Assembly: GCA_965240335.1 (NCBI GenBank)
Contig: CBDEKM010000018.1
Coordinates: 73,417 to 137,416 of the forward strand
Direction: 5' to 3'
Origin: a bacterium
GTDB taxonomy: Bacteria > JAAXHH01
DNA: 64,000 nt
The translations under genes were made by a program, and so were the position numbers. A model generated the notes under the pieces. The model saw only the letters and a program-made list of their open reading frames with translations. It did not search any database and was not told the DNA's origin. This document shows, piece after piece, positions 792 to 41,608 of this stretch (the first letter of the stretch is position 1; each line of letters starts with the position of its first letter).

Positions 792-842
792 GGCGGTATA
801 TGGATAAGGAAGTTGTGTCTGCGATCGTCTTGACGTTCCGTG

Positions 843-1445
843 CTACAACTCCGTGCGGCCCTCGAGGGCGCGTGCCAGCGTGACTTCGTCGGCGTATTCC
901 AGGTCGCCGCCCATGGGAAGTCCCCGGGCAAGACGAGTAACCCGGACGCCCAGCGGTTTGATCAACCTGCTCAGGTAGAGTGCGGTGGCTTCTCCCTCGA
1001 TATTGGGATTGGTCGCGATGATGACCTCTTCCACCGAATCGTTCATCCGCAGCATGAGTTCCCGGGCGCGGATGTCATCCGGAGTGATGTTGTCGAGCGG
1101 AGAAAGCGCACCGTGGAGCACGTGATACATGCCCCGGTACTCTCCAGTGCTTTCGAGTGTGATCACGTCCCTGGGTTCTTCTACGACGCAGATCGTTTCA
1201 GGTTTACGTCGGGTGTCATGGCAGATTTCGCAGGTTTCGGACTCGGTGATGTTCCAGCACACGTCGCAGTACCGGACCTTCTCCTTGACCGCCCGAATGG
1301 CGTCAGACAGCGAAAAGGCGCGTTCGGCCGGTCCCTTCAAGATATGAAAAGCCAGTCGCTGCGCCGTCACCCTGCCGATGTTGGGCAGGCGGCTCAATTC
1401 ATCCACCAGGATGGCCAGGGCCTCGGAACTGTACTTGCGCACCAT
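843..1445 (-). CDS. recR: recombination protein RecR
   Basis: 200 aa; HhH N-terminus (LPNIGRVTAQRLAFHIL), C4 zinc finger (CDVCWNITESETCEIC), Toprim region; conserved position after ybaB. Confidence 0.9.
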   Translation of the reverse strand: MVRKYSSEALAILVDELSRLPNIGRVTAQRLAFHILKGPAERAFSLSDAIRAVKEKVRYCDVCWNITESETCEICHDTRRKPETICVVEEPRDVITLESTGEYRGMYHVLHGALSPLDNITPDDIRARELMLRMNDSVEEVIIATNPNIEGEATALYLSRLIKPLGVRVTRLARGLPMGGDLEYADEVTLARALEGRTEL

Positions 1446-1506
1446 GAAAAAGGATTCCTTAGTTGAATTGGGATCAGGATCAGCGAAACGCCTTGTAACA
1501 CGGCGA

Positions 1507-1818
1507 CTACAGGCCGGGAATCTGAAGTCCGCCGGTGAGCTGCCCCATCTCCTGGTCCATCATTTCCTGTGCCTTCTGCTGTCCCTGGCTGATGGCGGCC
1601 AGCACGAGATCTTCGAGCATCTCCACGTCTTCGGAGTCCACCACGGCTGGATTGATCCTGATCTCCACGACGTTCAGCTTGCCGTCTACCACCGCGGTGA
1701 CCATACCGCCACCGGCGGTACCTTCCACCCGCCGCTGCGCGATTTCTTCCTGAAGCTGCATCATCTGCTTCTGCATCTTCTGTACCTTCTTCATCATGCC
1801 TGACATGCCCTTGGCCAT
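1507..1818 (-). CDS. ybaB: YbaB/EbfC family nucleoid-associated protein
   Basis: 103 aa; MAKGMSGMMKKVQKMQKQMMQLQEE... is typical YbaB; conserved dnaX-ybaB-recR order. Confidence 0.9.
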   Translation of the reverse strand: MAKGMSGMMKKVQKMQKQMMQLQEEIAQRRVEGTAGGGMVTAVVDGKLNVVEIRINPAVVDSEDVEMLEDLVLAAISQGQQKAQEMMDQEMGQLTGGLQIPGL

Positions 1819-1863
1819 AGCTCAATCCTTTCCTGTTTTACCCCCGGCCGCCGTGACCATGTC

Positions 1864-3960
1864 TCAGTCCGACACGATCTGGCCGTCGAAAGCCTCCACG
1901 ATCTTCCGGACGGCCGGATCTTTCGCGGCATCGGAACGAGCACCGGTCTCCTGGCTGGCTGTTTTGCCGGCCGCAGGGGGTTCCTGTCCTTCCTTGACTG
2001 TGCTTTCTGCAATGCCCGGATACTCGTCTGCCCCGACACCTGCATCATCTACGCTGGCATTTTCGTGGTCCGCCCCGGATCTGTCGTCGTCCGTTCCGGC
2101 GTTATCATCCCTAGTCCCGGACCTGTCGTCGGCAACGGCGTTATCTTCGATCTCGCACTTGATCCGAACCGGGCTTCCCAGCGCGTTGGAACATACCGCC
2201 TGTATCAGCAAAGCGGTCTCCCGCTTCTCGGCCTGCTCTTTGTGAAAGACTCGGTTGGTTCCGAACCTGAGGGTAATCATTGCGGACCGCTCCGCCCTGG
2301 ACTCTTCGTCCCTGGAGCAGCCGGAAACCTCCGCTTCTGCCAATAGCCTGCCCAGGCCACTACGCTGCTTCGTGATTTCTTCCACGATGGCGGGCCACCG
2401 GTTGCGGACGTCCCGGAGATCGAGTTCCGGGGTGGCCGCCGTAGTCGCTGCGGTCTCCGTAGTCGCTGCGGTCTCCGGACGGTCCCCGGGCTCAGAAACG
2501 GGCGGCGGATTCGATACCGCGCCTGTCGGTGAATCTGGCGCCTCGCCAGTCGCCGCATCCTGGTTCGTAGGGGTCGTCGCATCCTGGTTCGTGCTGACCG
2601 TCGCAGACGTTGGATCTACCGACGGCAACTCAGGAGCCTCACCGGTCGAGGATCCCGATACGGACGGGCCCAGCGCTTCCGGCCGCTCTACGGTACCGGA
2701 TGTATCCTGTCCCTTGCCAGAAAGGTTCGCGTCCCCGTCGAGGTTCGGATCCGGTTTGGCCTCGTGACCGGGAGAATGAGAGTCCGAAGCATCGTCGTCC
2801 CCCTCTCCCGAACCCACGCGACGGGCCATTTCGGATAACCGGTTCATGACCTCTGTCAGTTGCACCGAGCTGGCCATGCGTATCATGCGGACGACGCCGG
2901 TCTCGAGTTGCACCCGGGGAAGAGCGCTTTGCTTGACGGACTGTTCCATCTGCGTGGCCAACTGGGAAAGCCTGAGCAGGTCTTCCGTTTCAAATCGACC
3001 GACCTGTTCCCGGTAGTGGTCGAGTTCCAGGGCGGCGGCGCCGAGCAGCGCTTCCGCTTCGGGCGTCGCCTTGACGACGAGCAGGTTGCGGAGGTGTTCC
3101 AGGATGCCCAGGATGATCTCTTCGAAATCGTGACCCTGTCGGAAGATCCGGTCGACCAGGTCCAGTCCCCGTGGGACGTCCTGGTCCGCCACGATTTCCA
3201 TCAGCTCGAAATAGACGTCCTGGTCCACGATGCCCAGGACCTCCGCCGCTTCACCGGCGGTCAACCCGGTGCCGCCGAAAGCGACGACCTGGTCCAGCAG
3301 ACTTTCGGCATCCCGCATGCTGCCATCCACCCGCCGCGCGATGAGGGCGAGGGCCTCGCGCTGGACGTCGTAGCCGCTCTTTTCACTGATCATGGCCAGG
3401 TGATCTACGATGGTCGGCCCCGATATGCGCCGGAAGTCGAATCGCTGACACCGGGAAAGCACGGTGGGAATCACCTTCCGAGGGTCCGTCGTCGCGAAGA
3501 TGAAGTACACGTGGGGAGGCGGCTCTTCAAGCGTTTTAAGCAACGCGTTGAAGGCCTCCTTGGTCAGCATGTGCACTTCGTCGATGATGTAGATCTTGTG
3601 CTTGCCCTGGCTGGGCGTGTACTTGACGCTCTCGAGCAGATGGGTCCGGACCTGCTCGACGCGGTTGTTGGAAGCGCCGTCGATTTCCAGCACGTCGACG
3701 CTGCGTCCTTCCGAGATTTCCTGGCAGATAGTGCAGGCGTTGCAAGGCGTTACGGTGGGGCCGTCGACGCAGTTCAGGGCCTTGGCCAGGATGCGGGCCG
3801 TTGTCGTTTTACCCACGCCCCGGGGACCGGCAAACAGGTAGGCATGGGCGATCTGGCCGGCCTGTATGGCATTTTTCAGCGTAGTGGTGACGTGTTCCTG
3901 GCCGATTACGCCGTCGAATTCCTGCGGACGCCATTTTCGGGCCGTGACTTCGTAGGCCAA
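1864..3960 (-). CDS. dnaX: DNA polymerase III subunit gamma/tau
   Basis: ORF 1864..4038. AAA+ Walker A (GPRGVGKTTTARILAKAL), zinc module (CNACTICQ). Start chosen as TTG at 3960, preceded by GGAGG 8 nt upstream (gives M-AYEVTARKWRP, the canonical DnaX N-terminus); the ATG at 4003 is an alternative. Long Pro/Thr/acidic linker and acidic C-terminal tail. Confidence 0.9.
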   Translation of the reverse strand: MAYEVTARKWRPQEFDGVIGQEHVTTTLKNAIQAGQIAHAYLFAGPRGVGKTTTARILAKALNCVDGPTVTPCNACTICQEISEGRSVDVLEIDGASNNRVEQVRTHLLESVKYTPSQGKHKIYIIDEVHMLTKEAFNALLKTLEEPPPHVYFIFATTDPRKVIPTVLSRCQRFDFRRISGPTIVDHLAMISEKSGYDVQREALALIARRVDGSMRDAESLLDQVVAFGGTGLTAGEAAEVLGIVDQDVYFELMEIVADQDVPRGLDLVDRIFRQGHDFEEIILGILEHLRNLLVVKATPEAEALLGAAALELDHYREQVGRFETEDLLRLSQLATQMEQSVKQSALPRVQLETGVVRMIRMASSVQLTEVMNRLSEMARRVGSGEGDDDASDSHSPGHEAKPDPNLDGDANLSGKGQDTSGTVERPEALGPSVSGSSTGEAPELPSVDPTSATVSTNQDATTPTNQDAATGEAPDSPTGAVSNPPPVSEPGDRPETAATTETAATTAATPELDLRDVRNRWPAIVEEITKQRSGLGRLLAEAEVSGCSRDEESRAERSAMITLRFGTNRVFHKEQAEKRETALLIQAVCSNALGSPVRIKCEIEDNAVADDRSGTRDDNAGTDDDRSGADHENASVDDAGVGADEYPGIAESTVKEGQEPPAAGKTASQETGARSDAAKDPAVRKIVEAFDGQIVSD
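2441..2476. repeat. perfect 18-bp tandem duplication (gtagtcgctgcggtctcc x2) inside the dnaX linker; a second ~20-bp near-duplicate (..cgcatcctggttcgt.. x2) lies at ~2545-2590
   Basis: Read directly from the sequence; in-frame (encodes duplicated TAATxE / TNQDA segments of the low-complexity linker). Confidence 0.7.
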
Positions 3961-4082
3961 TGCCCAAACCTCCAAGCCTGGGTTACTCGGGACGAGAGGC
4001 ATGCGGAACGGGGCGAAAATAGTAAAGCGGTCGTGCACCCACCCTCGAATCTACTCGTATCGGGGCATCCGTACCGCCGGCT

Positions 4083-4185
4083 CCGGCCAGGCGCTCCTGC
4101 GGCACACGATTATGGCGCTTACCGCTGCTACCTTCCGGTCCTGACGGGGTTGGGCGTTTTCACGTTGCGCAGGACCTGACTTTCA
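4083..4185 (-). ncRNA. ffs: signal recognition particle RNA, small (4.5S) type
   Basis: Minus strand reads ...GTCAGGTCCTGCGCAACGTGAAAACGCCCAACCCCGTCAGGACCGGAAGGTAGCAGCGGTAAGCGCCATAATCGTGTGCCGCAGGAGCGCCTGGCC. It matches the E. coli 4.5S domain IV consensus (CGCAACG...GGUCAGGUCCGGAAGGAAGCAGCC) including the GGAA tetraloop. 5'/3' arms are complementary. Located immediately upstream of dnaX as in many bacteria. Ends approximate (+/-10 nt). Confidence 0.7.
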
Positions 4186-4367
4186 ATACCGGATGTAACA
4201 CATACCGGCGACGCAAGTGCGATCCTTGGGATGGGAATTCGACCCCGCTGTAGCGGGTTGCGGGTTACAGGGCACCGCTAACTCCCCATCTAGCACGACC
4301 GTAATCGTTCCAAGCCTGTAATACGGGATGCAGGGAACGCTCGCTTCGTCGTTACCGGCATCCCGAG

Positions 4368-4440
4368 TGGAGCAGAGCGGAATCGAACCGCCGACCTCCA
4401 GATTGCGATTCTGGCGCTCTCCCAACTGAGCTACTGCCCC
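4368..4440 (-). tRNA. tRNA-Ala (anticodon CGC)
   Basis: Minus strand GGGGCAGTAGCTCAGTTGGGAGAGCGCCAGAATCGCAATCTGGAGGTCGGCGGTTCGATTCCGCTCTGCTCCA folds as a cloverleaf; anticodon loop AUCGCAA; G3:U70 Ala identity pair present; CCA not encoded. Confidence 0.85.
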
Positions 4441-4509
4441 AAAGTTTCCGTGGAACGAGGCGGGTTAACCGTCCTCTTCGTTCCGGGTCCGGGTTCCCCC
4501 GGTATTCAA

Positions 4510-4595
4510 CGGAGAGGGTGGGATTCGAACCCACGGTCCACATGGTGAACACACGCTCTCCAGGCGTGCCGATTCGACCGCTCTCGCACCTCTCC
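4510..4595 (-). tRNA. tRNA-Ser (anticodon GGA)
   Basis: Minus strand GGAGAGGTGCGAGAGCGGTCGAATCGGCACGCCTGGAGAGCGTGTG...GTGGGTTCGAATCCCACCCTCTCCG; long variable arm (class II); anticodon loop CUGGAGA. Confidence 0.85.
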
Positions 4596-4667
4596 CAGGT
4601 CCGTATCTGTGGTCAATGCCCGCGTCCGATATCCTTCCCTCTGCATTCCGATCGACAGGCTGAAAAA

Positions 4668-4752
4668 CGGAGAGGGTGGGATTCGAACCCACGGTGCCCG
4701 AAGGCACAACGGTTTTCGAGACCGTCCGATTCAACCACTCTCGCACCTCTCC
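4668..4752 (-). tRNA. tRNA-Ser (anticodon CGA)
   Basis: Minus strand GGAGAGGTGCGAGAGTGGTTGAATCGGACGGTCTCGAAAACCGTTGTGCCTTCGGGCACCGTGGGTTCGAATCCCACCCTCTCCG; class II; anticodon loop CUCGAAA. Confidence 0.85.
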
Positions 4753-5246
4753 GGTAACCTCGGTTCGATATCCGTACCGCCTGCCGCCCGTTTCGCCTTG
4801 AAGAAGTCCTTGAGCAGGTCGGAGCAGTTGTCCGCCAGGATCCCTCCTGTTACTTCCACCTGGTGATTCAACCGGGTGTCCCCCACGATATCACGCAAGG
4901 AACCACAGGCTCCGGTCTTGGGATCCACCGCCCCGTAAATCAGGCTCCGCATCCGGGCCAGCACGATCGCTCCGGCGCACATCGCGCAGGGTTCCAGCGT
5001 AACGTAGAGCGCGGCTCCCGTCAGTCGTTCATATCCCAGGGTTGTGCACGCCTCGCGGATCGCCAGCATTTCGGCGTGTGCGGTGGGGTCGCGCAACCGC
5101 TCAACACGATTCTGGCCCCGGCCAATGACCATCCCTTCGTGAACGATCACGGCCCCGACGGGCACGTCACCTTCGGCCGCCGCCGACCTGGCTTCTTCGA
5201 GTGCCAGACGCAGCCATTTTTCTTGTTCGCCGTCGTTACTCGTCAT
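4731..5246 (-). CDS. tadA: tRNA-specific adenosine(34) deaminase
   Basis: ORF 4731..5294; first ATG at 5246 gives MTSNDGEQEKWLRLALEEA.... CDA zinc motifs HAE (HAEMLAIREA) and PCxxC (LEPCAMCAGAI). 3' end overlaps tRNA-Ser(CGA) by ~22 nt. Confidence 0.85.
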   Translation of the reverse strand: MTSNDGEQEKWLRLALEEARSAAAEGDVPVGAVIVHEGMVIGRGQNRVERLRDPTAHAEMLAIREACTTLGYERLTGAALYVTLEPCAMCAGAIVLARMRSLIYGAVDPKTGACGSLRDIVGDTRLNHQVEVTGGILADNCSDLLKDFFKAKRAAGGTDIEPRLPERCESG

Positions 5247-5267
5247 GGCATTACGTCTCACGAAATA

Positions 5268-5341
5268 TACGCCCGGAGGGAGTCGAACCCACAACCTCCT
5301 GATCCGTAGTCAGGTGCTCTATCCAATTGAGCTACAGGCGC
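5268..5341 (-). tRNA. tRNA-Arg (anticodon ACG)
   Basis: Minus strand GCGCCTGTAGCTCAATTGGATAGAGCACCTGACTACGGATCAGGAGGTTGTGGGTTCGACTCCCTCCGGGCGTA; anticodon loop CUACGGA; D-arm and anticodon arm canonical; one U:U mismatch in the T-stem and G:U pairs in the acceptor stem; ends +/-2 nt. Confidence 0.75.
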
Positions 5342-5445: not shown

Positions 5446-5973
5446 TCAATCGGTACTGCGGTCGTGTCGTTCGAGATAGACTCTTCTCCGTTCAACGTAC
5501 CCTTCCGCGGTTCGGTGAATTCGTTCGATCTGCTCGTCCGTGACGTGACGGATTACGCGACCGGGAACACCCAGGACAAGGGAACCGGGTGGCACGTCCA
5601 TGTGCTCGAGCACCAGCGCGCCGGCGCCGATGATACTATGCTCGCCGATGCGCGCACCGCTGAGGATCACGGCGCCCATAGAGATCAGCGCGTGGTCTTC
5701 CACTACCGCACCGTGGACGATGGCGCGGTGCCCCACGGTCACGCCCTTCCCCAGCACGGCGGGCATGCCGGCGTCGATGTGGATGACGCTGCCGTCCTGC
5801 ACGTTGGTCCCCTCGCCGATGGTAACCGGTTCGTCGTCCGCCCGGATCACCACCTGATACCAGACGCTTGCATTCATCCCGATGTCAACCGCCCCGATCA
5901 GATCGGCGCTCTCCGCCACGAAGGCGGAAGGATGAATAAGGGGAGACTGGTGTACATACTGGTTGGAGGTCAT
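5446..5973 (-). CDS. gamma-class carbonic anhydrase / hexapeptide-repeat (LbH) family protein
   Basis: ORF 5446..6078; ATG at 5973 (MTSNQYVHQSPLIHPSAFV...) preceded by AGGA; left-handed beta-helix hexapeptide repeats and His ligands typical of gamma-CA/YrdA/PaaY. Confidence 0.8.
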   Translation of the reverse strand: MTSNQYVHQSPLIHPSAFVAESADLIGAVDIGMNASVWYQVVIRADDEPVTIGEGTNVQDGSVIHIDAGMPAVLGKGVTVGHRAIVHGAVVEDHALISMGAVILSGARIGEHSIIGAGALVLEHMDVPPGSLVLGVPGRVIRHVTDEQIERIHRTAEGYVERRRVYLERHDRSTD

Positions 5974-5983
5974 GTGGGGATTC

Positions 5984-7276
5984 CTACCCGGCGGCGTCCT
6001 GGGCGCACTGCACCCGGGGGATGACGTAGGGCCCTTTCGGAACGACGGCGATGGTGGCGTCACTGCCATGGCGCTCAAGGGCTCGCGCTATGCCGGCCTC
6101 GACGGATGGGACCGGTTCGACGAGGCAATCCCGCACATCGTCGTCATTCAGGCCGTCCGTATAGAGGTATATCTGTCCCTTCTTCAACGCTTTTACCAGT
6201 TCTTCGATTTCCCACTGGTCGATGGTGAATACGCCCGGTTGCTGGATCGATTCGAGAAAGGCGTCGATATCCGTTGTCATCCGCAGCAGTCCCTCGAATT
6301 CCGCGCTTCCGATCCCATCGGCGCATCCGGCCGCGATGACGATGGATCCGCCCTCCCTGAGAATGTCCAGCACCCCGACCATACCCTTCACTGCCTGGTA
6401 GAACGTAGTATCCAGGGGATAGCCGGCTGAAGAGGTCACGACGATGTCCACCGGTTCCTCGACACTGGCAACCACCATGCTGTCCACATGGCTGACCCCG
6501 TGCAGGTGGGCCTGCTCGAGCTCGCCGGCGAACACCCCGGTAATACGTCGGTCCTCGTCCAGGGACACGTTGAGGATGAAATCGACACCGGCACGCCGGG
6601 CGATTTCCAGGGATGCCTCGTGGAGTGGGTTGCCGTCGAGCACACCCGTCGTGGCGCGGGGATGTTCCAGGATCTTCGGTCCGTGAAGGTATTCGATCGT
6701 CTCCACGCCCACCAGTCCGGGCGCGACCAGCTTGCGCCCACCCGAATAGCCGGCCATGAAGTGGGGTTCGATCAACCCGGTCAGCACCTTGAGATCGCTT
6801 TCGACGTAACGGCGGTCCACGTGGATCGGGATCCCGGTACTCGTGGTCCCGAGATGGGCCTGCTGCGCTCCGATTCGCGCCCGGTGGTTTACAACGGGAT
6901 AGCGGTCGACCACGGCGCCGGTCAGCGTCTCGCGAAGCTGGGCTTCGTCCATGGGGGCGTGCAGTCCTGTGGCAACCAGGAGGGTGATATCCTTCGGCGC
7001 CAGCCCGCTTCGTTCCAGGCTTTCCAGCAGGGGCGGCAGAATGATGTCGTGGGGCACGGGCCGCGTGATGTCGGAAACGACCACGCAGGCATTCCGGCGT
7101 CCAGTGGCTAGTACTTCGAGCGGCGGCCCCGCTACGGGCTGACGAATCGCATCCCGGGTCGCTGCCACGGGATCATCCAGCGGCGGCGTTTCCCGCATGT
7201 TAAGGACTGCTACGAGGTTTTCGTCCGGAACGCGTACGTTGACCCCGGATTTGTGATAATCGAGTTTGATGTTCAT
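5984..7276 (-). CDS. LarA-family protein (DUF2088; nickel-pincer cofactor-dependent 2-hydroxyacid racemase/epimerase family)
   Basis: 430 aa; N-terminal LarA-like domain and overall length typical of lactate racemase homologues; no larB/larC/larE in the window. Confidence 0.75.
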   Translation of the reverse strand: MNIKLDYHKSGVNVRVPDENLVAVLNMRETPPLDDPVAATRDAIRQPVAGPPLEVLATGRRNACVVVSDITRPVPHDIILPPLLESLERSGLAPKDITLLVATGLHAPMDEAQLRETLTGAVVDRYPVVNHRARIGAQQAHLGTTSTGIPIHVDRRYVESDLKVLTGLIEPHFMAGYSGGRKLVAPGLVGVETIEYLHGPKILEHPRATTGVLDGNPLHEASLEIARRAGVDFILNVSLDEDRRITGVFAGELEQAHLHGVSHVDSMVVASVEEPVDIVVTSSAGYPLDTTFYQAVKGMVGVLDILREGGSIVIAAGCADGIGSAEFEGLLRMTTDIDAFLESIQQPGVFTIDQWEIEELVKALKKGQIYLYTDGLNDDDVRDCLVEPVPSVEAGIARALERHGSDATIAVVPKGPYVIPRVQCAQDAAG

Positions 7277-7285
7277 GGCGATCCC

Positions 7286-8269
7286 CTACGATGCTTCCTG
7301 TTCGACTTCGAGCCCGGGTCCCGGTGATGGTACTAGTATGCCTGCGGCACCGAATTTCATCATGGTGCGGGCCAGTTCGCTGGGGGACTCGTGAAGCGCC
7401 ACGATGGCGCCGCTGCTGCCCGCGAGCTTTGCGCCGAATGCGCCCGCCCGTCGGGCAAATTCGATGAACCGGTCGTCCTCGGGATTGGATCCGCCGAGCG
7501 CCTGCGTCAGCGCCTGGTTCTCGTTCATCAGGTCTCCCAGCGTGTCGAGCCTGTTCTCGAGGATCGCTTTCTTCCCGTGCCGGGCCAGGCCGGCGATGGT
7601 CCGGTATGTTTCGACTATTTCAGGTTCCCCGGCGAGCCAACGTTCCCTGAGCGGGGTATGCACGCCGCCGGAGACGCGCTGGCCGCCCGTGATGACCACG
7701 ACGACCGGCAGGGCCGAGGCGGGTACCATCGGTTCCATGGTGGCAAAGGGATCGGTCCCGAACTCCAGGTGGAATTCTTTTCCCCTGAAATCCATGTAAT
7801 GCATCCCGCCGAAGGTGCACATGTAGGCGTCCTGGTACCCGCAGAAGCACAGGTTTCGGTATTCGATCATGCGGACGAGTTCCGCCATGTGGTAAGATCC
7901 GTGACGTAAGCCGCGGAACGCAAGCAGGCCGGCAACCATGGACACGAGCAGCGCGGTCGACCCCGAAAGACCGGCCCGGAATGGGATGTCGGTAGACCAG
8001 GAGATTCGGACGCGCAGGTCAGCGGATTCCGTACCCGCAAGCGCGACGCGCGCGATATCGAATATGTCTTCCCGCTGGGCCAGGTCGTCCGGCGAAGCGA
8101 TGACCTTCTGTTCGGTGCCGGCGTCCAGGACCAGGCGGTCCGCCGGTTGGACCTTGACCCTTGCCCTTTCCACCGTCGAACACGAAATCACGCTACCGCC
8201 GTACATGTCGGTCGGATTGCCCACGATGCCGACGCGGCCGGGTGCAGATGCGGTTACGGTCCCGCTCAA
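7286..8269 (-). CDS. GHMP-family sugar kinase
   Basis: 327 aa; GHMP motif PGRVGIVGNPTDMYGG near N-terminus and glycine-rich motif 2 (AGLSGSTALLVSMVAGL). Confidence 0.75.
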   Translation of the reverse strand: MSGTVTASAPGRVGIVGNPTDMYGGSVISCSTVERARVKVQPADRLVLDAGTEQKVIASPDDLAQREDIFDIARVALAGTESADLRVRISWSTDIPFRAGLSGSTALLVSMVAGLLAFRGLRHGSYHMAELVRMIEYRNLCFCGYQDAYMCTFGGMHYMDFRGKEFHLEFGTDPFATMEPMVPASALPVVVVITGGQRVSGGVHTPLRERWLAGEPEIVETYRTIAGLARHGKKAILENRLDTLGDLMNENQALTQALGGSNPEDDRFIEFARRAGAFGAKLAGSSGAIVALHESPSELARTMMKFGAAGILVPSPGPGLEVEQEAS

Positions 8270-8294
8270 TTGGACTCCGCTGCGTGTGTGCTGT

Positions 8295-9203
8295 TCATGT
8301 GTTGTTCAACCGTCCCTGCAGAAAACCGCGAAAGGCCGTTCCGTCGGTCTCATCCTGCAGTGCATAGTCGGCAAAGGCTTCCCAGTAGGTCAGGGGCGTG
8401 CCGATATCGTAGCGGCTGCTGCCGGTTCCCAGGGGTACACACCATACCGCACCACCCTCCCGGATCAGGTCTCGGATGGCGTCGCCGAGCCACAGTTCAC
8501 CGTTTTTCCCCCGAGGTGTCGTCTCCAGCGCCGGGAAGATGCCGGGGCCGCATATGTAGCGGGCCGATACGGCGTAGCGGCTGGGCGCGGTTTCCGTGGA
8601 CGGCTTCTCCACGATGTCATCGATGGGGAACGCCGTGTCGGATTCATATACAGGCCGTACGATTCCATATCGCGAAACCTTCTCTTCGGGAACGTACTCC
8701 ACCGCGATCGTACACGCTGCGTCTTCCTTTGCGTGGGTTTCCATCATGCGCCGCACGACGCTGCCTTCCTTCTGCGACCGGATGACGGCGTCGCCCCAGG
8801 CCACGACGAAGGCGTCCGAACCCGCGAAGGATTCACCCAGCCGAACGGCGTCTCCGTTGCCGGCCGGGATCTCCTGCCGCACGAACGCGTAGTCCAGCGC
8901 GGGTGGTTCGGTCCGGTGCGAACGGTCCTGGTCTCGCTGTCCCCGGAGTAGCCCGTCTGTTTGCATATCCTGTTCGTCTGGTTGCTCGCCGCGCTGGCCG
9001 ATCTCGAAGTATTCCTCGATCGCTGTTTTGTGGCTTGCCGTAACGAAGAGAATTTGATCGATGCCCGTGGCTGCCAGTTCATCCACCACGCGGTGTATCA
9101 CCGGTTTGCGGCCGAGGGGCAGCATTTCTTTTGGAATAGACCGCGTGAGCGGCCGCATCCGCGTGCCCAGACCCGCTACGGGAACCACGGCCTTCCGGAT
9201 CAT
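8295..9203 (-). CDS. sugar-1-phosphate nucleotidyltransferase (GalU/UTP-glucose-1-phosphate uridylyltransferase-like)
   Basis: ORF track gives 8295..9686, but the N-terminal 161 codons are out-of-frame overlap with eda. Real start is ATG 9203 (MIRKAVVPVAGLGTRMRPLTRSIPKEMLPL...), ATGA-overlapping the eda stop. GxGTR and K-EML motifs. Confidence 0.8.
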   Translation of the reverse strand: MIRKAVVPVAGLGTRMRPLTRSIPKEMLPLGRKPVIHRVVDELAATGIDQILFVTASHKTAIEEYFEIGQRGEQPDEQDMQTDGLLRGQRDQDRSHRTEPPALDYAFVRQEIPAGNGDAVRLGESFAGSDAFVVAWGDAVIRSQKEGSVVRRMMETHAKEDAACTIAVEYVPEEKVSRYGIVRPVYESDTAFPIDDIVEKPSTETAPSRYAVSARYICGPGIFPALETTPRGKNGELWLGDAIRDLIREGGAVWCVPLGTGSSRYDIGTPLTYWEAFADYALQDETDGTAFRGFLQGRLNNT

Positions 9204-9859
9204 CCCCCACCGTCCTGCCGCGCGGCCCGAACCACCTCGACGTATTTCCGGGCTGTATCGGTAAGGACCTGCCAGTCGCCCGCGGCCACGGCAGCCTTGT
9301 CCACCAGGTTCCCGCCCACGGCGATGGCGCAGGCGCCCGCTCGTATGAAGTCGCCCGCGTTGTCCAGGTCCACCCCGCCGGTAGGCATGAGGTCGATCTG
9401 GGGGAGCGGCCCCTTGACGTCCTTGAAATAACTGGGTCCCACCGCGGTCGCAGGAAACACCTTCACGATGTCCGCGCCGCATTCCCAGGCCGTCAGAATC
9501 TCCGTCGGCGTCAACGCACCCGGGATGATGACCTTGTCGTACCGCCGGCAGAGGGTGATGACGTCCGGATTCAGCGTCGGGGTTACGATGTATTCGGCAC
9601 CGGCCAGGATCGCGGCGCGGGCCGTCTCGGGATCCAGCACGGTACCCGCGCCGAGCAGGAACTCGCCCCCGAGCCGGTTCGCGCATTCGCCGATGACGTC
9701 CAGGGCGCCGGGTGTCGTCATGGTGATTTCGATGGCCCCGACGCCACCCTTGCCGATGGCCTGGGCGACCTGAACCAGCGCGTCGGGACTTTCCGCCCTG
9801 AGCACCGCGACCACCCCGCCTGCCTTTATGGATGCGAGGTTTTCAGCTCTCATTGACAT
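9200..9859 (-). CDS. eda: 2-dehydro-3-deoxy-phosphogluconate / 4-hydroxy-2-oxoglutarate aldolase
   Basis: 219 aa; KDPG aldolase TIM barrel with Schiff-base Lys region (VKVFPA) and Gly-rich C-terminus. Confidence 0.85.
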   Translation of the reverse strand: MSMRAENLASIKAGGVVAVLRAESPDALVQVAQAIGKGGVGAIEITMTTPGALDVIGECANRLGGEFLLGAGTVLDPETARAAILAGAEYIVTPTLNPDVITLCRRYDKVIIPGALTPTEILTAWECGADIVKVFPATAVGPSYFKDVKGPLPQIDLMPTGGVDLDNAGDFIRAGACAIAVGGNLVDKAAVAAGDWQVLTDTARKYVEVVRAARQDGGG

Positions 9860-9863
9860 GGTT

Positions 9864-10265
9864 TCACTCCAGCGTGACCTTCACCTTGCGTTCCGGCCTC
9901 TCATGCAGGTGCCCGTGTCCCGGCAGGGCGACGCCGAGGCGAATCGACGGCTTGCCGCCGACAGGGAATATATGATGGAAAGTCATGGCCGGCACATAGA
10001 TGAAATCACCCGCCTTTGCGTGGACCGTCTCGTCCCGACCCTCGATCACCCAGTCGATTTCACCTTCGAGCACGAGCCACCATTCGTCGTAGTCATGGCA
10101 GTGGTTGTCGTTCACCGTGCCCGACTCCTGCCAGATGAATGCGGCGGTCACGTGTTCCGCGGCCATGACCGCACAGGAGGCTGGCGGCGGACCGATTCGT
10201 TCCTTGATCTCTTCGATATTGATCTGATTGAGCGCGGCATGCATGACTGGTTTCGGTGGGGCCAT
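9864..10265 (-). CDS. cupin-domain protein
   Basis: 133 aa; cupin motifs (HxH...E, 'HCHDYDEWWLVLEGE', 'PAMTFHH'); 4 nt after eda. Confidence 0.7.
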   Translation of the reverse strand: MAPPKPVMHAALNQINIEEIKERIGPPPASCAVMAAEHVTAAFIWQESGTVNDNHCHDYDEWWLVLEGEIDWVIEGRDETVHAKAGDFIYVPAMTFHHIFPVGGKPSIRLGVALPGHGHLHERPERKVKVTLE

Positions 10266-10380
10266 CGTGGTACTCCTTTAAGAGGTAATCTTGTTGTACG
10301 GACCGGGGTTGCCGCGGGACCATGACTCAAAGCAGTTGCGCCGCGGGACTCGGACCGTCTCGGACGAATACAGGTGGTTG

Positions 10381-11520
10381 CTACGCGATTCGGTATTTCG
10401 CTATGGTTTCTTCGTTAACCGTGACCCCCAGTCCGGGTCCGTCGGGGACCGCCACGAAACCGTGGTCATCGATGATAAACCGTTCATGGGTCATTTCGTG
10501 CCGCAGCGGTGAATCGGACATGCAGAATTCGAAGACGGACGCGTTGGGCAGGGCGGCCAGCGCGTGAAGCGCCGCCGCCATGGTGATACCGCTCTTGTAA
10601 CTGTGATTGGCGACCTGACGGCCATGGCTGTGGGCGATACGGCCGGCCGCGGTCATGGTCGATATGCCGCAGCGGCCCGGATCCGGTTGAATCCAGTCGA
10701 GTCCGCCCCTGGTGACCAGTCGCTCGAAGTCCTCGAGCCGGGATTCGGCTTCCCCGGTGGCGATGGGCACCGGACTTTCCGTAGTCAGTGAAGCGTATCC
10801 CTCGATGTCGTCCGGGTGTAGCGGTTCTTCGATCCAGTAGGGCCGGCATTCCGCGAATTGCCTGGCACGCTTCAGCGCGGTTTCCCAGTCCCAGACCTGT
10901 CCGGCGTCAATGAGCACGTCGACCTCGTCACCGGTTCCCCGCCGTGCCTCCCGTACCAGCGCGACATCCTGCGCTTCGTCCTTGCCCATGGGACCCCAGC
11001 CGAACTTGACCGCCGTGAATCCCTGGTCGGCGAATTTCCTGCCGATCGCCCGGGTCGCCGAGGGCGTGTCACCGAAAAGGACGGAAGCATAGGCCCGAAA
11101 CTTAATCCTGTGTGCACCGCCCAGGAGCTGGTAGACGGGCTGTCCGCTGGCCTTTCCCGCGATGTCCCAGAGTGCCAGGTTGACCCCGGCCATGGCGTGC
11201 TGTCCCACGCCAACCCGGCCGTAGTAATTGGCCGCGTCCATCATCCGGTCTGTACACGCGTCAATGTCCAGGGGATCGGCGCCGGCCAGCGCGTTGGCCA
11301 GGCCGTTGCAGATCTGGTGTGACAGGGGCGCGTCGATTACGGCCTTTACCACGGTGGGACACGAATCGACTTCGCCCCAGCCTGTAATACCTGCGTCCGT
11401 TTCGATTTTAATCAGGCAGGTGTCCTGCGTTCCGTCACAGGCCTCCGTCACATCCGGAAGCCTGAGAACCAGTGCTGAAACCTCGACGATCCGCACGCTT
11501 GCTTCCTCCTTGTCCTCCAA
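10381..11520 (-). CDS. enolase-superfamily (mandelate racemase/muconate lactonizing enzyme family) sugar-acid dehydratase
   Basis: 379 aa; MR/MLE N- and C-terminal domains; metal ligands D/E/D (…LIDAGQVWD…EEP…); resembles D-mannonate/galactonate/rhamnonate dehydratases. Confidence 0.8.
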   Translation of the reverse strand: MEDKEEASVRIVEVSALVLRLPDVTEACDGTQDTCLIKIETDAGITGWGEVDSCPTVVKAVIDAPLSHQICNGLANALAGADPLDIDACTDRMMDAANYYGRVGVGQHAMAGVNLALWDIAGKASGQPVYQLLGGAHRIKFRAYASVLFGDTPSATRAIGRKFADQGFTAVKFGWGPMGKDEAQDVALVREARRGTGDEVDVLIDAGQVWDWETALKRARQFAECRPYWIEEPLHPDDIEGYASLTTESPVPIATGEAESRLEDFERLVTRGGLDWIQPDPGRCGISTMTAAGRIAHSHGRQVANHSYKSGITMAAALHALAALPNASVFEFCMSDSPLRHEMTHERFIIDDHGFVAVPDGPGLGVTVNEETIAKYRIA

Positions 11521-11811
11521 ACCGGCATGGTGGAATCACGTAGGTTAATGTGTGAAACGACATGGGGGGTGTCAAGTGGAGATGCCCCCGCACCAAGGGC
11601 GAATCACGACCTGAAATCCATCCAACCCGGTCTCAAATTTTACTGTGGTTGAAAACGCATTTGAGCACGGTCCGAGCCAGGAAATAAACCTTGACACCCC
11701 GGCGCGTCGCCCTGCACTATGGAGGCTAGATCGCCGGTACTCCCACTCGTTTCACGAGCCGGCGGATACGCCCCGTTTACACCACAGCGCCACATAAGAA
11801 AACCTGACCCT

Positions 11812-12744
11812 ATGCTCCGATATATCATATACCGCATCGTGGGCTTGATCGGCGTTTTGTTCCTGGTAACGATCATCACCTTCAGCCTGATGCATGCGGT
11901 TCCGGGCGGCCCGTTCGACGAAGAGAAGATGCCCCTCTCGGCCGAGGCCAAGGCGAATATCCTACGCAAGTACGGCCTGGACAAGCCCCTGTACGAGCAG
12001 TACGGACGGTACATGTGGAACGCGCTGCAGTTTGATTTCGGCATTCCCTTTCAGAGTCCGGGCGAGACGGTAACGGACCTGATTTCGCGTACCTGGCCCA
12101 TCAGCATGCAGCTGGGTGGTATGGGCCTCGCCCTGGCGTTCGCCTTCGGCATCCTCCTGGGTATATTGTCCGCGATCCGCCAGAATACATGGCTGGATTA
12201 CGGGACAACGATCATCGCTACCCTTGGGATCACTGTGCCCAGTTTCGCCATTTCCATTTTGTTCATCGTCGTTTTCGCGACCATTTGGAGGATTCTGCCC
12301 ACGGGTGGATGGGGCGGACCCGAAACCTGGATAATGCCGGTGATCGTATATGCACTGGGTCCCATGGCAATCATCGCCCGATATACCCGTTCGAGCGTAC
12401 TCGAGAACCTGCGCATGGACTACGTGCGGACCGCACGGGCCAAGGGACTCAAGGAGCGGAGCGTCCTTTTCGTCCACGTACTTAAGAACTCCATGATCCC
12501 GCTGCTGACCATCATGGGCCCGATGCTTCCCGGCGTGATGACCGGTTCGCTGTTCGTCGAAGGCATATTTCGCATTCCCGGACTGGGACAATTCTTCGTC
12601 ACCAGTATATTCGAACGGGATTACCCCATGATCATGGCGCTGACGCTGCTCGTCGCGGTACTGATCGGGATCGTATACCTGATTACCGATATACTGTACG
12701 CGCTCGTCGATCCCAGGGTTCGGTTCGTACGCGGGAGCAAGTAA
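11812..12744 (+). CDS. peptide/nickel-type ABC transporter permease (DppB/OppB family)
   Basis: ORF 11719..12744; first ATG 11812 ([14 protein letters not shown]...), the canonical OppB N-terminus; 6 TM; EAA-like loop. Confidence 0.85.
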
Positions 12745-13697
12745 TGTCCAACGGGAATTCACGGTCGGGGCGAACGTTCCTGGATTACCTCGGTATTTCC
12801 GCCCGTGGGTTCTGCATGGGTGTCGCCGATGTCGTTCCCGGCGTGTCCGGGGGAACGATGGCCTTTATCCTCGGTGTGTACGAAGAATTGCTGGACGCCG
12901 TTCATTCGGTAAACGGCAGGTTCCTGCGACTGCTGTTGACGTTTCGATTAAAGGCGGCCTTTGACGGATTTCCTTACGGGTTCGTGATCGCCCTCGTTAC
13001 CGGTATCATGGTGGCGATATTCAGTCTGGCCGGTTTTTTCACCTGGGCACTTGCGAATCATCCCGTTCTGGTGTGGGCGTTTTTCTTCGGATTGGTGCTC
13101 GCGTCGATCATCACCGTTCGGGTAAAGGTGTCCGCCTGGAGCGAGACCGAAGTGCTCGCGTTACTGCTGGCGGCTGCGGCTGCCTTCGTCCTTGTGGGCG
13201 CCGTCCCGGTCGAAACGACCTCTGCCGTCTGGTTCGTGTTCCTGAGCGGAGCCATAGCGATCTGCGCCATGATCCTGCCCGGCATCTCGGGCTCGTTCAT
13301 CCTGGTCATACTGGGGAAGTATCAGTACATGCTCAATGCCGTGGTGCAGCGCGATTTCCTGCCCATACTGATCTTTGGATGCGGCGGTATCCTGGGATTG
13401 GTCTTTTTCGCGCGAGTGCTTCGATGGCTTTTCCGGCGCTATCATGACCTGACCGTGGCTGCCCTTATCGGCCTCATGGCGGGTTCATTGCGAAAGATCT
13501 GGCCGTGGAAGGAAACCGTTGAATCGTTCACGGACCGGCATGGTGTGGTGAAACCCTTGATACAGCAAAACGTCCTGCCCGCGTCGTTGTCCAACGAAGC
13601 CCTGCTGGCTATTGCCATGGGCATCACGGGCTGCGCTATCGTACTGGCCATCGAGCGTTTCGCGATAAAGCGCTCTTCAGAAAAAACGGAAAACTAG
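12744..13697 (+). CDS. DUF368 (COG2035) family membrane protein
   Basis: 317 aa; DUF368 signature (GFCMGVADVVPGVSGGTMAFILGVYEEL, later ILPGISGSFILV); TAATG overlap with the dppB stop, 4 nt before dppC. Confidence 0.75.
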   Translation: MSNGNSRSGRTFLDYLGISARGFCMGVADVVPGVSGGTMAFILGVYEELLDAVHSVNGRFLRLLLTFRLKAAFDGFPYGFVIALVTGIMVAIFSLAGFFTWALANHPVLVWAFFFGLVLASIITVRVKVSAWSETEVLALLLAAAAAFVLVGAVPVETTSAVWFVFLSGAIAICAMILPGISGSFILVILGKYQYMLNAVVQRDFLPILIFGCGGILGLVFFARVLRWLFRRYHDLTVAALIGLMAGSLRKIWPWKETVESFTDRHGVVKPLIQQNVLPASLSNEALLAIAMGITGCAIVLAIERFAIKRSSEKTEN

Positions 13698-13701
13698 CAC
13701 C

Positions 13702-14565
13702 ATGATGGAAGTCATCCCATCCACCGGCGGCCTGTGGCGTGACGCCCTGCGCCGATACACTAAGAACAAGCTGTCCGTCGCGGCGGGGATCATCATCATC
13801 GTCATCACGTTCATGGCCCTCTTCGCGCCATTGGTCTCGCCGTCCCATTATTCCGAGGCCAATTTCGACGAAGCGTGGCAGTTCCCGTCCTACTCCCATC
13901 CCATGGGTACGGACAGCATCGGCCGGGATTATTTCAGCCGGATCGTGTACGGCGCGCGTATCTCGCTCATCGTGGGATTCGTCGCGCAGATGATCTCCCT
14001 GCTGATCGGGGTGCCGCTCGGGGCCATCGCCGGATTCAAAGGCGGCAAGGCCGATTACATCGTCATGCGCCTGGTGGACGTGATGTCGGTTTTTCCCAGC
14101 CTGCTTTTTGCCATACTCATCATGGCGTGGCTGGGAAGCGGATTGAGCAACGTGTTATTCGCCATCGGCGTGACCGGCTGGGTGGGGGTTTGCCGCCTGG
14201 TCCGTGCCCAGTTTCTTTCGCTGAGGACGTCCGATTTCGTCCGGGCGGCGCGGTCCATGGGCGCGTCCAACGTACACACCATAGTCCGCCACATGCTGCC
14301 AAACGCCCTGAGCCCAATCATCGTCGGTCTGGCCATGGGCATACCGCAGGCCATCTTCGCCGAGGCGGGCCTGAGCTTCCTCGGCCTGGGTATCAATCCG
14401 CCCACACCGAGCTGGGGACAGATGGTCAGCAGTCACCTGCCCAACGTCATCTACTACTGGCATCTCGCCCTCTTTCCGGTTTTCATGATCGCCCTGGTCA
14501 TGCTCGGATTTTCGCTCATCGGCGACGGCCTCCGCGACGCCCTCGACCCGAGGATGAACGAGTAG
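13702..14565 (+). CDS. peptide/nickel-type ABC transporter permease (DppC/OppC family)
   Basis: 287 aa; OppC-like N-terminal helix and permease domain. Confidence 0.85.
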   Translation: MMEVIPSTGGLWRDALRRYTKNKLSVAAGIIIIVITFMALFAPLVSPSHYSEANFDEAWQFPSYSHPMGTDSIGRDYFSRIVYGARISLIVGFVAQMISLLIGVPLGAIAGFKGGKADYIVMRLVDVMSVFPSLLFAILIMAWLGSGLSNVLFAIGVTGWVGVCRLVRAQFLSLRTSDFVRAARSMGASNVHTIVRHMLPNALSPIIVGLAMGIPQAIFAEAGLSFLGLGINPPTPSWGQMVSSHLPNVIYYWHLALFPVFMIALVMLGFSLIGDGLRDALDPRMNE

Positions 14566-14574
14566 GGCGTTACG

Positions 14575-16302
14575 TTGCATGCCAGGTCTATTATGCGAAT
14601 AATGACCGGAACATCGTTTCTTCGGCGGTCAAGCTGCCTCTTCCTCATCGCGGGGATTACCTGGTCGGCCCACGGACTGATCGATACGCTATTCCCTGCC
14701 AACGGACCGCGTCACGTTAATTCCATCGGGGTTCCACTGCCCGAAGACGCCCTGCCTCCCGAGCAACAGGTTCTTTACAAGTTTTCGGAATCCCGGCCCT
14801 ATAACGAGTGGTTTCGCACGGTTTACAAGGGCGCCGAAGGCAAATACATCATCGCCGAACCGTTGACGCGCACCAACCGTGATTTCGTGCTGAGGGGGGG
14901 AGCTGCGGAACGGTGGGAGATGTCCGATGACGACCTGGAATGGACCTTCCATCTGCGTCCGGGACTGCAGTGGAGTGACGGCCGTCCGTTGACCGCCCAC
15001 GATTATGTCTTTTCCCTCCGCCGGGGCGCCGATCCGGAAAACGCCTATGATTTCGGATGGTATTACCAGCCGATCCGGAACTGGCAGGCCGTCGTCGCCC
15101 GGAAGGTACCTGTGGACTCTCTGGGCGTATGGGCGTCCGACGATCTCACGTTGCACGTTGCTACAGAAGAACCCACGCCCCACCTCCCCCTGCTGCTGAC
15201 CTATTCCTGGGTTTCACCCGAGCACGCGGTTCGCAAGTACGGCGACACCTGGTCTACCCGGCCGGAAACCAGCATTTCATCCGGTCCCTTCGTGATGGTC
15301 GAATGGACCAAGGGTGAGCAGATGATTTACGAGGCCAACCCGATGTACCGCGGGGTCGACAAACCGTACCTGGAACGCGTGGTTTACAGGATGTTCAACC
15401 TGACCACGCCGCCCCAGCGGCTTTCCGCGTACGAGGCCGGCGAAGTCGATTTGTCCGAGGTGGAGAACCAGGCGGAACTGGCGCGGCTGCTCTCTGACGA
15501 CAACCTGACCAGCCAGGTTCACACGTGGCCCAATTTCTTTACCCACTACCTGTTTTTTGACGTGCGGCAACCACCTTTCAACGACCGGAGAGTCCGCCTC
15601 GCCATGAGCCTGGCGATCGACCGGGAAGCGCTGTGCCGTTCCGCGCTCAAAGGCTTCGCCATACCCGCCTATGCCATGCTGCCACCGGGGTTTCCGGCCT
15701 ATTCAGACAATGTTTACGAGGAAAGTCTTGGATACGACCCGGAGCGTGCCAGGCAGCTTCTCGCGGAGGCGGGCTATCCGGATGGACGAGGATTACCCGA
15801 ACTGGACATGTGGCTGCGCAACGAGATCGTCATGCACCGCGACGCGGCCGAGGGACTGCAGGCCATGCTGCAGCGCAACCTCAACATGAAGGTCGAAGTG
15901 CGCAACGTGGAGAACAAGGTCTTCATGGACGGACTGAACAACCACACTTTAGCCTTCGGGATGGTACCCTACGAATTCGATTTCGTGGATCCGAGCAATC
16001 TACTCGGACTCTGGCGGTCCAACGGTCGTCACAACTGGAACAATTCAGCCTTCGACGCCCTGATGAACGCGGCAGGCGCGGAAGTCAGGGACCAGGAACG
16101 GCGTATCGACCTGTACAGGGAAGCGGAACGGTTGCTGGTGGAGGACGTGGCCGGTGTTTTTCTGTGGTACAGGCAGCGGGCGCAGATCTGGAAGCCCTAT
16201 CTGAAAGGGTCGGCGTTGGAACCGAACGCATCGGGGTTCCGGTCGTGGCGGGGGGACCAGGTGATGAGCTCTTCGATTTCCCTGTACATCGGGGAAAACT
16301 GA
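14575..16302 (+). CDS. ABC transporter substrate-binding protein, family 5 (oligopeptide/dipeptide/nickel type)
   Basis: 575 aa; SBP_bac_5 features (…TFHLRPGLQWSDGRPLTAHDYVFS…); signal peptide; start may be an internal ATG (MRIM, +18 nt). Confidence 0.85.
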   Translation: MHARSIMRIMTGTSFLRRSSCLFLIAGITWSAHGLIDTLFPANGPRHVNSIGVPLPEDALPPEQQVLYKFSESRPYNEWFRTVYKGAEGKYIIAEPLTRTNRDFVLRGGAAERWEMSDDDLEWTFHLRPGLQWSDGRPLTAHDYVFSLRRGADPENAYDFGWYYQPIRNWQAVVARKVPVDSLGVWASDDLTLHVATEEPTPHLPLLLTYSWVSPEHAVRKYGDTWSTRPETSISSGPFVMVEWTKGEQMIYEANPMYRGVDKPYLERVVYRMFNLTTPPQRLSAYEAGEVDLSEVENQAELARLLSDDNLTSQVHTWPNFFTHYLFFDVRQPPFNDRRVRLAMSLAIDREALCRSALKGFAIPAYAMLPPGFPAYSDNVYEESLGYDPERARQLLAEAGYPDGRGLPELDMWLRNEIVMHRDAAEGLQAMLQRNLNMKVEVRNVENKVFMDGLNNHTLAFGMVPYEFDFVDPSNLLGLWRSNGRHNWNNSAFDALMNAAGAEVRDQERRIDLYREAERLLVEDVAGVFLWYRQRAQIWKPYLKGSALEPNASGFRSWRGDQVMSSSISLYIGEN

Positions 16303-37086: not shown

Positions 37087-37134
37087 ACCCGGTAGGAGAT
37101 AGATCCAGGACCCTCTGAACCCGTTCAGAAAGGA

Positions 37135-38181: not shown

Positions 38182-38234
38182 CCAAACCGCCGCCCCGAAC
38201 GCTCGACTCAGGCGACTTATTTCCCGGTGACACC

Positions 38235-40632: not shown

Positions 40633-40635
40633 ACC

Positions 40636-40752: not shown

Positions 40753-40776
40753 TGGTTAAACAAGGTGTGATGATTA

Positions 40777-41595: not shown

Positions 41596-41608
41596 GACGA
41601 AGGTCCTT

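Follow-up and report, generated by a model that had tools for sequence, protein, structure and literature searches.

A seven-gene cluster that may divide uronate between catabolism and UDP-uronate salvage in a bacterium of the JAAXHH01 lineage

In this study, we analysed a stretch of 64,000 nucleotides (hereafter the window) from an uncultured marine bacterium of the JAAXHH01 lineage (GenBank assembly GCA_965240335.1, contig CBDEKM010000018.1, positions 73,417 to 137,416), which carries a compact cluster of seven genes at window positions 5446–11520. We tentatively propose, at a confidence that falls slightly short of probable, that the cluster is a uronate/sugar-acid utilisation operon that would split free uronate between catabolism and salvage to uridine diphosphate (UDP)-uronate. 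The cluster has probably accreted around an old two-gene module, consisting of a nucleotidyltransferase (NTase) and a glucuronokinase-like GHMP kinase. The seven open reading frames (ORFs) are co-directional, all on the minus strand, and are given below in the order of transcription, with KDPG standing for 2-keto-3-deoxy-6-phosphogluconate and KHG for 2-keto-4-hydroxyglutarate.

10381–11496, minus strand: dehydratase, an acid-sugar dehydratase-like enzyme of the enolase superfamily (mandelate racemase subgroup), 371 amino acids (aa), domains MR_MLE_N and MR_MLE_C
9864–10265, minus strand: small single-domain cupin, 133 aa, Cupin_2 (44 bits)
9200–9859, minus strand: Eda, a KDPG/KHG aldolase of the Eda family, 219 aa, PF01081 (150 bits)
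8295–9203, minus strand: NTase, a GalU-like sugar-1-phosphate nucleotidyltransferase, 302 aa, PF00483
7286–8269, minus strand: GHMP kinase, glucuronokinase-like, 327 aa, PF00288 (GHMP_N) and PF08544 (GHMP_C)
5984–7276, minus strand: LarA, a LarA-family nickel-pincer nucleotide (NPN)-dependent 2-hydroxyacid racemase of group 2 (Sar/LarAIp-like), 430 aa
5446–5973, minus strand: gamma-carbonic-anhydrase (gamma-CA)-like hexapeptide-repeat protein, 175 aa, Hexapep domain

The family of each of the seven genes was backed by Pfam domains, and in this an earlier note on the same DNA, made from the sequence alone, had been correct throughout, as it had been in its coordinates. Proteins identical to the seven products, residue for residue and with the same starts, are present in the NCBI/ENA databases, and the members of their 90%-identity clusters bear the names of Gemmatimonadetes/Gemmatimonadota metagenome-assembled genomes (MAGs). 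When the curated equivalog and subfamily cut-offs of NCBIfam were applied to all seven products, only Eda passed.

The kinase and the NTase carry most of the argument. A profile was built from 24 homologues of the kinase and searched against 1.84 billion representatives, and it matched a Ziziphus jujuba protein, named glucuronokinase 1 in NCBI/UniRef, at E = 4e-40. By BLASTP the kinase was 29% identical to plant glucuronokinase 1 over residues 2–299 (114 bits). With phmmer, using the same program and database size throughout, it scored 99.8 bits against plant glucuronokinase 1, versus 69.7 bits against mevalonate kinase (the top solved GHMP kinase), 47 bits against heptose kinase and 25 bits against galactokinase. 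The higher scores on glucuronokinases than on other GHMP families place the kinase with the former, at a large distance from all GHMP kinases of known structure. The motifs GNP[ST]D.Y.G, G.QD...YGG...MDF and R.RWL.G are common to the kinase and glucuronokinase, and among these shared motifs is the peptide VGFLGNPSDVYFGR, which was sequenced from purified lily glucuronokinase (PMC2823444). The AlphaFold2 model of the kinase (pLDDT 88) had a GHMP fold with TM-scores of 0.75–0.85 to GHMP kinases; a fold search of the PDB with this model did not tell the GHMP families apart, and no solved glucuronokinase structure was present among the sequence or fold matches of the kinase in the PDB. Judged by these similarities, the kinase is a predicted uronate 1-kinase. 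The NTase scored 211.9 bits against the GalU model TIGR01099, under the cut-off of 326.8 bits, and is therefore a GalU-like paralogue and not GalU itself; its top PDB match was the Bacillus subtilis UGPase YngB (153 bits), and we predict that it is a UTP:uronate-1-phosphate uridylyltransferase.

The two genes were found to travel together over a wide phylogenetic range. In a one-genome-per-species collection, 387 stretches encode relatives of the kinase, and 80 of these loci, all from uncultured MAGs, were fetched and compared by tblastn with the seven window proteins and by clustering of neighbouring ORFs. The NTase gene was located directly upstream of the kinase gene in 75 of the 80 loci, and the loci bearing the pair came from Gemmatimonadota/Latescibacterota-labelled MAGs, Zixibacteria, Chloroflexota/Anaerolineae and Planctomycetota. 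The suggestion of the earlier note that a GHMP kinase beside an NTase stands for anomeric phosphorylation followed by formation of a nucleotide sugar is borne out by this conservation and by the closeness of the kinase to glucuronokinases.

Genes of sugar-acid metabolism have been added to the pair in steps. In one branch of Gemmatimonadota, Zixibacteria and Latescibacterota, the pair is accompanied by Eda, LarA and the gamma-CA-like gene. In a sister clade, whose kinases are 55–62% identical to that of the window, the order is PfkB-Eda-NTase-(sensor kinase)-kinase-LarA-gamma-CA, with some loci having only part of it. In four of the five sister-clade loci a PfkB gene precedes the NTase-kinase pair, and in three of them Eda stands in between; this PfkB is most similar to kinases of 2-keto-3-deoxygluconate (KDG) and 2-keto-3-deoxygalactonate. 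The stop codon of Eda and the start codon of the NTase overlap in the window (as ATGA), in a Zixibacteria MAG (L001) and in a 527-kb marine metagenome contig (L085). The full seven-gene order is repeated in 21 related MAG loci and in L085, which repeats the whole arrangement, flanks included; the dehydratase, the cupin and the divergent Opp-type transporter were found only in the 21 closest MAGs and L085. The hybrid pathway that the note had suggested, taken as one designed route, is not supported; the cluster is a lineage-specific accretion of modules.

In more distant loci, other uronate genes stand near the pair. One Anaerolineales locus (L067) has the order UxaE (492 bits), NTase, kinase and D-mannonate oxidoreductase (392 bits, above its cut-off), with a putative hexonate epimerase of the LarA family (group-18-like) 3 kb beyond; in L078, UxaE is likewise located upstream of the pair. 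Two Latescibacterota loci (L063 and L076) have a GalD/ManD-like dehydratase and a malate-racemase-like LarA within 9 kb after the pair, and L076 has a sulfatase in the same region. It is notable that LarA-family genes of three different groups recur near the pair.

Two further observations were made on the fetched loci. An AP_endonuc_2 gene of about 276 aa (a xylose-isomerase-like TIM barrel) lies directly before the NTase in 20 of 54 distant loci, in Chloroflexota (L003, L033 and 18 others). It was considered as a UxaE-like gene and rejected, as no significant similarity to UxaE and no NCBIfam match was found. In L001, a gene for a hybrid sensor histidine kinase/response regulator (548 aa, 8358–10004) is inserted between NTase and kinase; in L025, L028 and L029 the two genes are separated by a comparable distance, which points to the same insertion there.

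Considering these results, we have proposed a plausible model of how the cluster would work. The kinase would phosphorylate, with ATP, the anomeric C1 hydroxyl of a free, glucuronate-like hexuronate, and the NTase would convert the uronate-1-phosphate and UTP to UDP-uronate for the glycans of the cell itself; the same salvage route, a kinase followed by formation of UDP-uronate, is known from plants and zebrafish (PMC3938481 for the zebrafish protein DrGKUP). On the other branch, the dehydratase, together with the cupin, would convert a sugar acid to a 2-keto-3-deoxy acid, which Eda would cleave to pyruvate and an aldehyde. Imported uronate or sugar acid would in this way be divided between energy and biosynthesis. 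A hexuronate was chosen as the likely substrate because of the nearest named family of the kinase, the UxaE/UxuB context in Anaerolineales, and the KDG-kinase-like PfkB of the sister clade (with Eda adjacent in three loci) together with the Eda/NTase overlap.

The model was compared with known systems. Like the route of Arabidopsis GlcAK and zebrafish DrGKUP, the window has a GHMP kinase with GlcAK-type motifs, at the 29% identity to plant glucuronokinase 1 given above, and in zebrafish and other lower eukaryotes an N-terminal NTase is fused to a C-terminal glucuronokinase (DrGKUP, PMC3938481), which is the same order, NTase before kinase, as that of the window genes. Unlike the eukaryotic proteins, the predicted enzymes of the window are encoded by separate bacterial genes within a sugar-acid operon. 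Bacteroides Fkp (fucokinase/GDP-fucose pyrophosphorylase) is a bacterial precedent for a salvage unit of an NTase and a GHMP sugar-1-kinase, and its fucokinase part was among the structural matches to the window kinase (ranks 20 and 29), but Fkp is one fused protein, GTP-dependent and fucose-specific, and scored 29.5 bits against the window kinase. The Thermotoga-type hexuronate network, with UxaE and the LarA homologue GntE, resembles the Anaerolineales arrangement, in which the pair lies between UxaE and mannonate oxidoreductase with a LarA-family gene near, and it resembles the window in the association of a LarA-family gene with Eda. The window differs from it in having no UxaC, UxaE, UxuB or UxuA and a LarA outside the GntE groups. 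To our knowledge, the Thermotoga network as described does not include a kinase-NTase pair of this type.

Among the catabolic genes, the dehydratase starts at a GTG behind an AGGAGG ribosome-binding site, within an ORF that reaches a TTG at 11520. Its top NCBIfam match was galactonate dehydratase, at 180 bits compared with a cut-off of 311 bits, and it stayed below every equivalog cut-off among the galactonate, arabinonate, gluconate, talarate/galactarate, rhamnonate and mannonate models. Its top PDB relative was 3sjn (281 bits), an entry with no function on record, and a literature search on 3sjn turned up no function for the dehydratase. The cupin always accompanies the dehydratase within the close clade and is the second gene of the cluster, not the last as the note had it; its PDB matches were weak and generic. 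Solved structures of KdgF, the uronate-linearising cupin, exist, and the window cupin was considered as a KdgF, a candidate that was rejected as none of its 37 PDB matches (E of 1 or less) bears the name KdgF. Eda scored 192.2 bits against TIGR01182, over the cut-off of 156 bits. A mandelate-racemase-subgroup dehydratase followed by a pyruvate-releasing aldolase is what the window shares with non- and semi-phosphorylative Entner-Doudoroff-like routes; in contrast to those routes, its aldolase is of the Eda type (class I, normally acting on phosphorylated substrates), no PfkB kinase is nearby, and its dehydratase is below all equivalog cut-offs.

Several points weigh against the proposed uronate operon. 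At 29% identity to glucuronokinase, the sugar of the kinase cannot be fixed, and the literature searched held no characterised bacterial glucuronokinase. A eukaryotic NTase-glucuronokinase fusion of 643 aa (P0253), found by the kinase profile search, was tried as a carrier of an orthologue of the window NTase and rejected, as only a 28-bit N-terminal match was obtained; since its NTase domain is barely similar to the GalU-like NTase of the window, the eukaryotic fusion is an analogy and not an orthologue. The 180-bit and 3sjn matches of the dehydratase would not allow its substrate to be assigned. The window has no uronate isomerase, uronate dehydrogenase or KDG kinase, and in most Chloroflexota loci the pair lies amid housekeeping genes or beside AP_endonuc_2, with no uronate genes nearby. 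The sister-clade locus L025 has no LarA and still keeps PfkB, Eda, NTase, kinase and the gamma-CA-like gene. Furthermore, we know of no need for a lactate/glycerate-type racemase in standard hexuronate catabolism.

The last point makes the identity of LarA important. LarA was full-length in its domains (Lar_N, PF09861, 191.5 bits; LarA_C, PF21113, 96.9 bits), and its top solved relative was LarAIp, the broad-spectrum racemase of short-chain 2-hydroxyacids (lactate/glycerate) from Isosphaera pallida (LarAH2/Sar; PDB 9eia and 9eid), with 468 bits over residues 3–422. R72, H106, H172, K182, H198, Y293, Q294 and K297 align to residues of LarAIp and are invariant across 14 homologues, so that LarA keeps the two catalytic His, the NPN-tethering Lys, the Ni-binding His, and the carboxylate-binding Arg, Gln and Lys with the Tyr (roles according to PMC11851776). 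The loss of active-site residues, which the note had named as part of what would count against its idea, was therefore not seen, and the gene is under purifying selection (dN/dS 0.13). The substituent pocket of LarAIp is formed by Leu174, Met175, Trp356 and Gln357 (PMC11851776), at whose positions the window LarA has Phe, Met, Trp and Glu. The two proteins are thus alike in the catalytic, tether, Ni and carboxylate residues, which are identical, and nearly so in the pocket, and they differ in the Phe and Glu that stand for Leu174 and Gln357 and in an Ala in place of the Arg after the first catalytic His. The group-2 fingerprint, D R H H [LF] M K H ... Y Q V K F [VI] D W [QE] [LVI] E, is present in the window LarA, which reads D69 R72 H106 H172 F173 M174 K182 H198 Y293 Q294 V296 K297 ... 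F-T-I-D-Q-W-E-I-E, as do the rows for Mahella and Isosphaera in group 2 by pattern (Desguin 2020, Dataset S2). LarA scored 411.4 bits against the lactate racemase equivalog NF033504, under its cut-off of 460 bits, and 21 bits against the hexonate-epimerase model NF052594, whose cut-off is 500 bits, and this places it outside groups 18, 19 and 20. The GntE-type fingerprint, with E at 175 after the second catalytic His and W/T at 294/295, differs from that of LarA. LarAIp prefers lactate and 2-hydroxybutyrate, followed by glycerate (PMC11851776), and has no gluconate 2-epimerase activity (Table 1, PMC7583248). Going by these relatives, LarA belongs to the racemases of the short-chain type (lactate, 2-hydroxybutyrate or glycerate), and its substrate is most likely a small 2-hydroxyacid linked to this metabolism.

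LarB-, LarC- and LarE-type domains were absent from the approximately 50 genes of the window, as the note had also stated for the corresponding genes. This says little, because group 2 lacked conserved neighbours, larBCE included, in the survey of Desguin 2020 (PMC7583248); as LarA is intact and conserved, its cofactor is presumably made elsewhere in the genome. Unlike the group-2 genes of that survey, the window LarA does have a conserved neighbourhood. Its homologues fall into an operon clade of at least 67% identity and a next tier of at most 55%, with a gap between; all homologues of at least 67% whose neighbourhood was examined adjoin the NTase-kinase pair, and two examined group-2 LarA genes from the lower tier stand alone.

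Some side observations on LarA are recorded here. Residue 107, which follows the first catalytic His (H-x-P), is Ala, Gly, Glu or Asp in the operon clade, and Arg (H-R-P) in LarAIp and every homologue at 55% identity or less. In one protein of a 31,354-bp ENA contig (P0379, 543 aa), a LarA that is 87% identical to that of the window is joined to a hexapeptide domain, which is either a true LarA/gamma-CA-like fusion or the result of a lost stop codon or sequencing error over the 10-nt gap. Beside a solitary group-2 LarA that is 50% identical to that of the window (L087), a divergent gene for a CE15-type glucuronoyl esterase is located at 6516–9275, which may be a further uronic-acid link or chance.

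Of the alternatives, the one raised by the earlier note is that LarA is a C2 epimerase for a sugar acid of the gluconate/mannonate type, hexonic or derived from uronate, whose product would enter either the dehydratase and Eda or the kinase and NTase. Other LarA groups do occur in hexuronate clusters, as with Thermotoga maritima GntE and the GntE1 group (PMC7583248), a group-18-like LarA is present in L067 and malate-racemase-like ones near the pair in L063 and L076, and the operon clade is set off by its identity gap and by a clade-specific substitution at the residue that follows the first catalytic His. Given the 468-bit match to LarAIp, with the hydrophobic pocket kept (F/M/W/E versus L/M/W/Q), the lack of gluconate epimerase activity in LarAIp and the 21-bit hexonate-epimerase score, beside GntE-type groups of a different fingerprint, a sugar-acid C2 epimerase is therefore not the best-supported assignment, and we regard it as quite unlikely. 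The other enzymatic alternative is that the GHMP kinase is the missing catabolic kinase, phosphorylating a 2-keto-3-deoxy acid for Eda, with the NTase an unrelated GalU-like housekeeping enzyme. KDPG aldolases of the Eda type normally require a phosphorylated substrate, the kinase lies downstream of Eda within the same cluster, and a PfkB-type KDG kinase was found neither in the window nor within 10 kb in 21 close loci. However, the NTase accompanies the kinase in 75 of the 80 loci, with or without Eda, four of the five sister-clade loci have PfkB in addition to the GHMP kinase and three of these four also have Eda, the closest named relatives of the kinase are anomeric sugar-1-kinases, and the NTase scores under the GalU equivalog cut-off, all of which makes this explanation very unlikely.

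It could also be supposed that the genes share no pathway and are independent modules packed by chance in a compact genome beside tRNA genes, SRP RNA and dnaX. The modules do differ in phylogenetic spread, the gamma-CA-like gene stays in L025 where LarA is missing, group-2 LarA genes are solitary elsewhere, and the flanking synteny (TadA, tRNAs, DnaX, YbaB, RecR and PgsA) is kept as far as Zixibacteria. Chance packing would have to be reconciled with an Eda/NTase overlap kept across clades, with the finding that every LarA homologue at 67% identity or more whose surroundings were examined adjoins the NTase-kinase pair, with the recurrence of LarA-family and uronate genes near the pair in unrelated phyla, and with the failure to find internal promoter or terminator signals, and we consider it unlikely. 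Within the proposed uronate operon, a more specific, uronate-linked role of LarA is kept open by the LarA groups that recur near the pair and by the uronic-acid context of the GntE1 group reported by Desguin (PMC7583248). The operon-linked LarA clade would then have been recruited from short-chain racemases into uronate metabolism, where it may invert C5, the carbon adjoining the carboxylate, of an open-chain hexuronate (e.g. L-iduronate to D-glucuronate) or a centre in a uronate-derived 2-hydroxyacid; this idea is a slim prospect at present.

The seven genes probably form a single transcription unit. Their junctions, read from the sequence in the order of transcription, are 115, 4, −4 (ATGA, Eda stop/NTase start), 25, 9 and 10 nt, and the operon-like packing seen in the earlier note is upheld. 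A consensus scan of the coding strand within the cluster gave no sigma-70-like promoter and no intrinsic terminator, the 115-nt gap after the dehydratase held no structured RNA (z = 0.67), and no Rfam family was matched inside the cluster. Two elements were found upstream of the cluster.

11547–11576, minus strand: promoter-like element, C-TTGACA (11575–11570), a 17-nt spacer and CACATT (11552–11547)
11690–11700, plus strand: second, inverted copy of CTTGACACCCC, an exact match facing the divergent Opp-type transporter genes

The promoter-like element precedes the first gene by about 70 nt, and its block is kept in at least 90% of 20 related loci; it was passed over by the consensus scan because its −10 hexamer fits at three of six positions. 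It includes the exact 11-mer CTTGACACCCC (11566–11576, minus strand), which has two copies in the whole 64-kb window. The copies form an inverted pair at a distance of 113 nt, in the region that separates the operon from the divergent transporter genes, and the second is followed 18 nt later by CACTAT and is conserved in related loci; the pair looks like divergent promoters or a site for a shared regulator. All seven genes are under purifying selection, with a median dN/dS of 0.06–0.20 against 19–21 related MAGs. Co-transcription is likely in view of this selection, the conserved upstream block and the lack of internal signals.

The last gene of the cluster encodes a close member of the gamma-CA family, as judged from its sequence: the protein scored 174.1 bits against NF050158, under the cut-off of 250 bits, and in the PDB it matched 6ive (172 bits) and 9rmq (158.7 bits), the latter an entry named gamma carbonic anhydrase. 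Its gene follows LarA in 24 loci, and lies directly after the kinase in L025, where LarA is missing.

The surroundings of the cluster can be described briefly. Upstream, on the plus strand at 11719–16302, two Opp/Dpp-type permease genes flank a DUF368/VCA0040-like gene (undecaprenyl-phosphate translocase-like, 12744–13697), and a gene for a family-5 solute-binding protein comes next, with no adjacent ATPase gene; the same layout is present in L085. Downstream, on the minus strand at 207–5341, are tRNA-Arg, TadA, two tRNA-Ser, tRNA-Ala, the signal recognition particle (SRP) RNA, DnaX, YbaB, RecR and a CDP-alcohol phosphatidyltransferase, and the order DnaX, YbaB, RecR, phosphatidyltransferase after the gamma-CA-like gene is kept in L001 and L085. 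A second set of genes for sugars and sugar acids in the window comprises a ribose-type ABC transporter (36067–39734) and a short-chain dehydrogenase/reductase (40777–41694) within 36067–41694, and, within 47556–61877, an IlvD/Edd-family dehydratase (47556–49622), an Amidohydro_2 protein (50418–51251), a dihydrodipicolinate synthase (DHDPS)-family protein (56339–57232) and an AP_endonuc_2 protein (60963–61877).

The family of every component was already known and the proposed chemistry is conventional, so that the value of the work lies in the assignment of a pathway. What appears to be new is a widespread bacterial counterpart of the eukaryotic glucuronokinase/pyrophosphorylase pair, and the coupling of this pair to Eda. 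Should the pair convert free uronate to UDP-uronate, the salvage route so far known from plants and lower animals would have its first bacterial form, and this would change how the supply of nucleotide sugars is modelled in these phyla. If LarA has been recruited, epimers that are otherwise unusable would be opened to the kinase/NTase or the Eda branch, and this would add a new reaction to those that depend on NPN and give a group-2 LarA its first physiological role. Furthermore, the cluster is the first conserved neighbourhood for group-2 LarA, and offers a lead to the physiology of nickel-pincer racemases.

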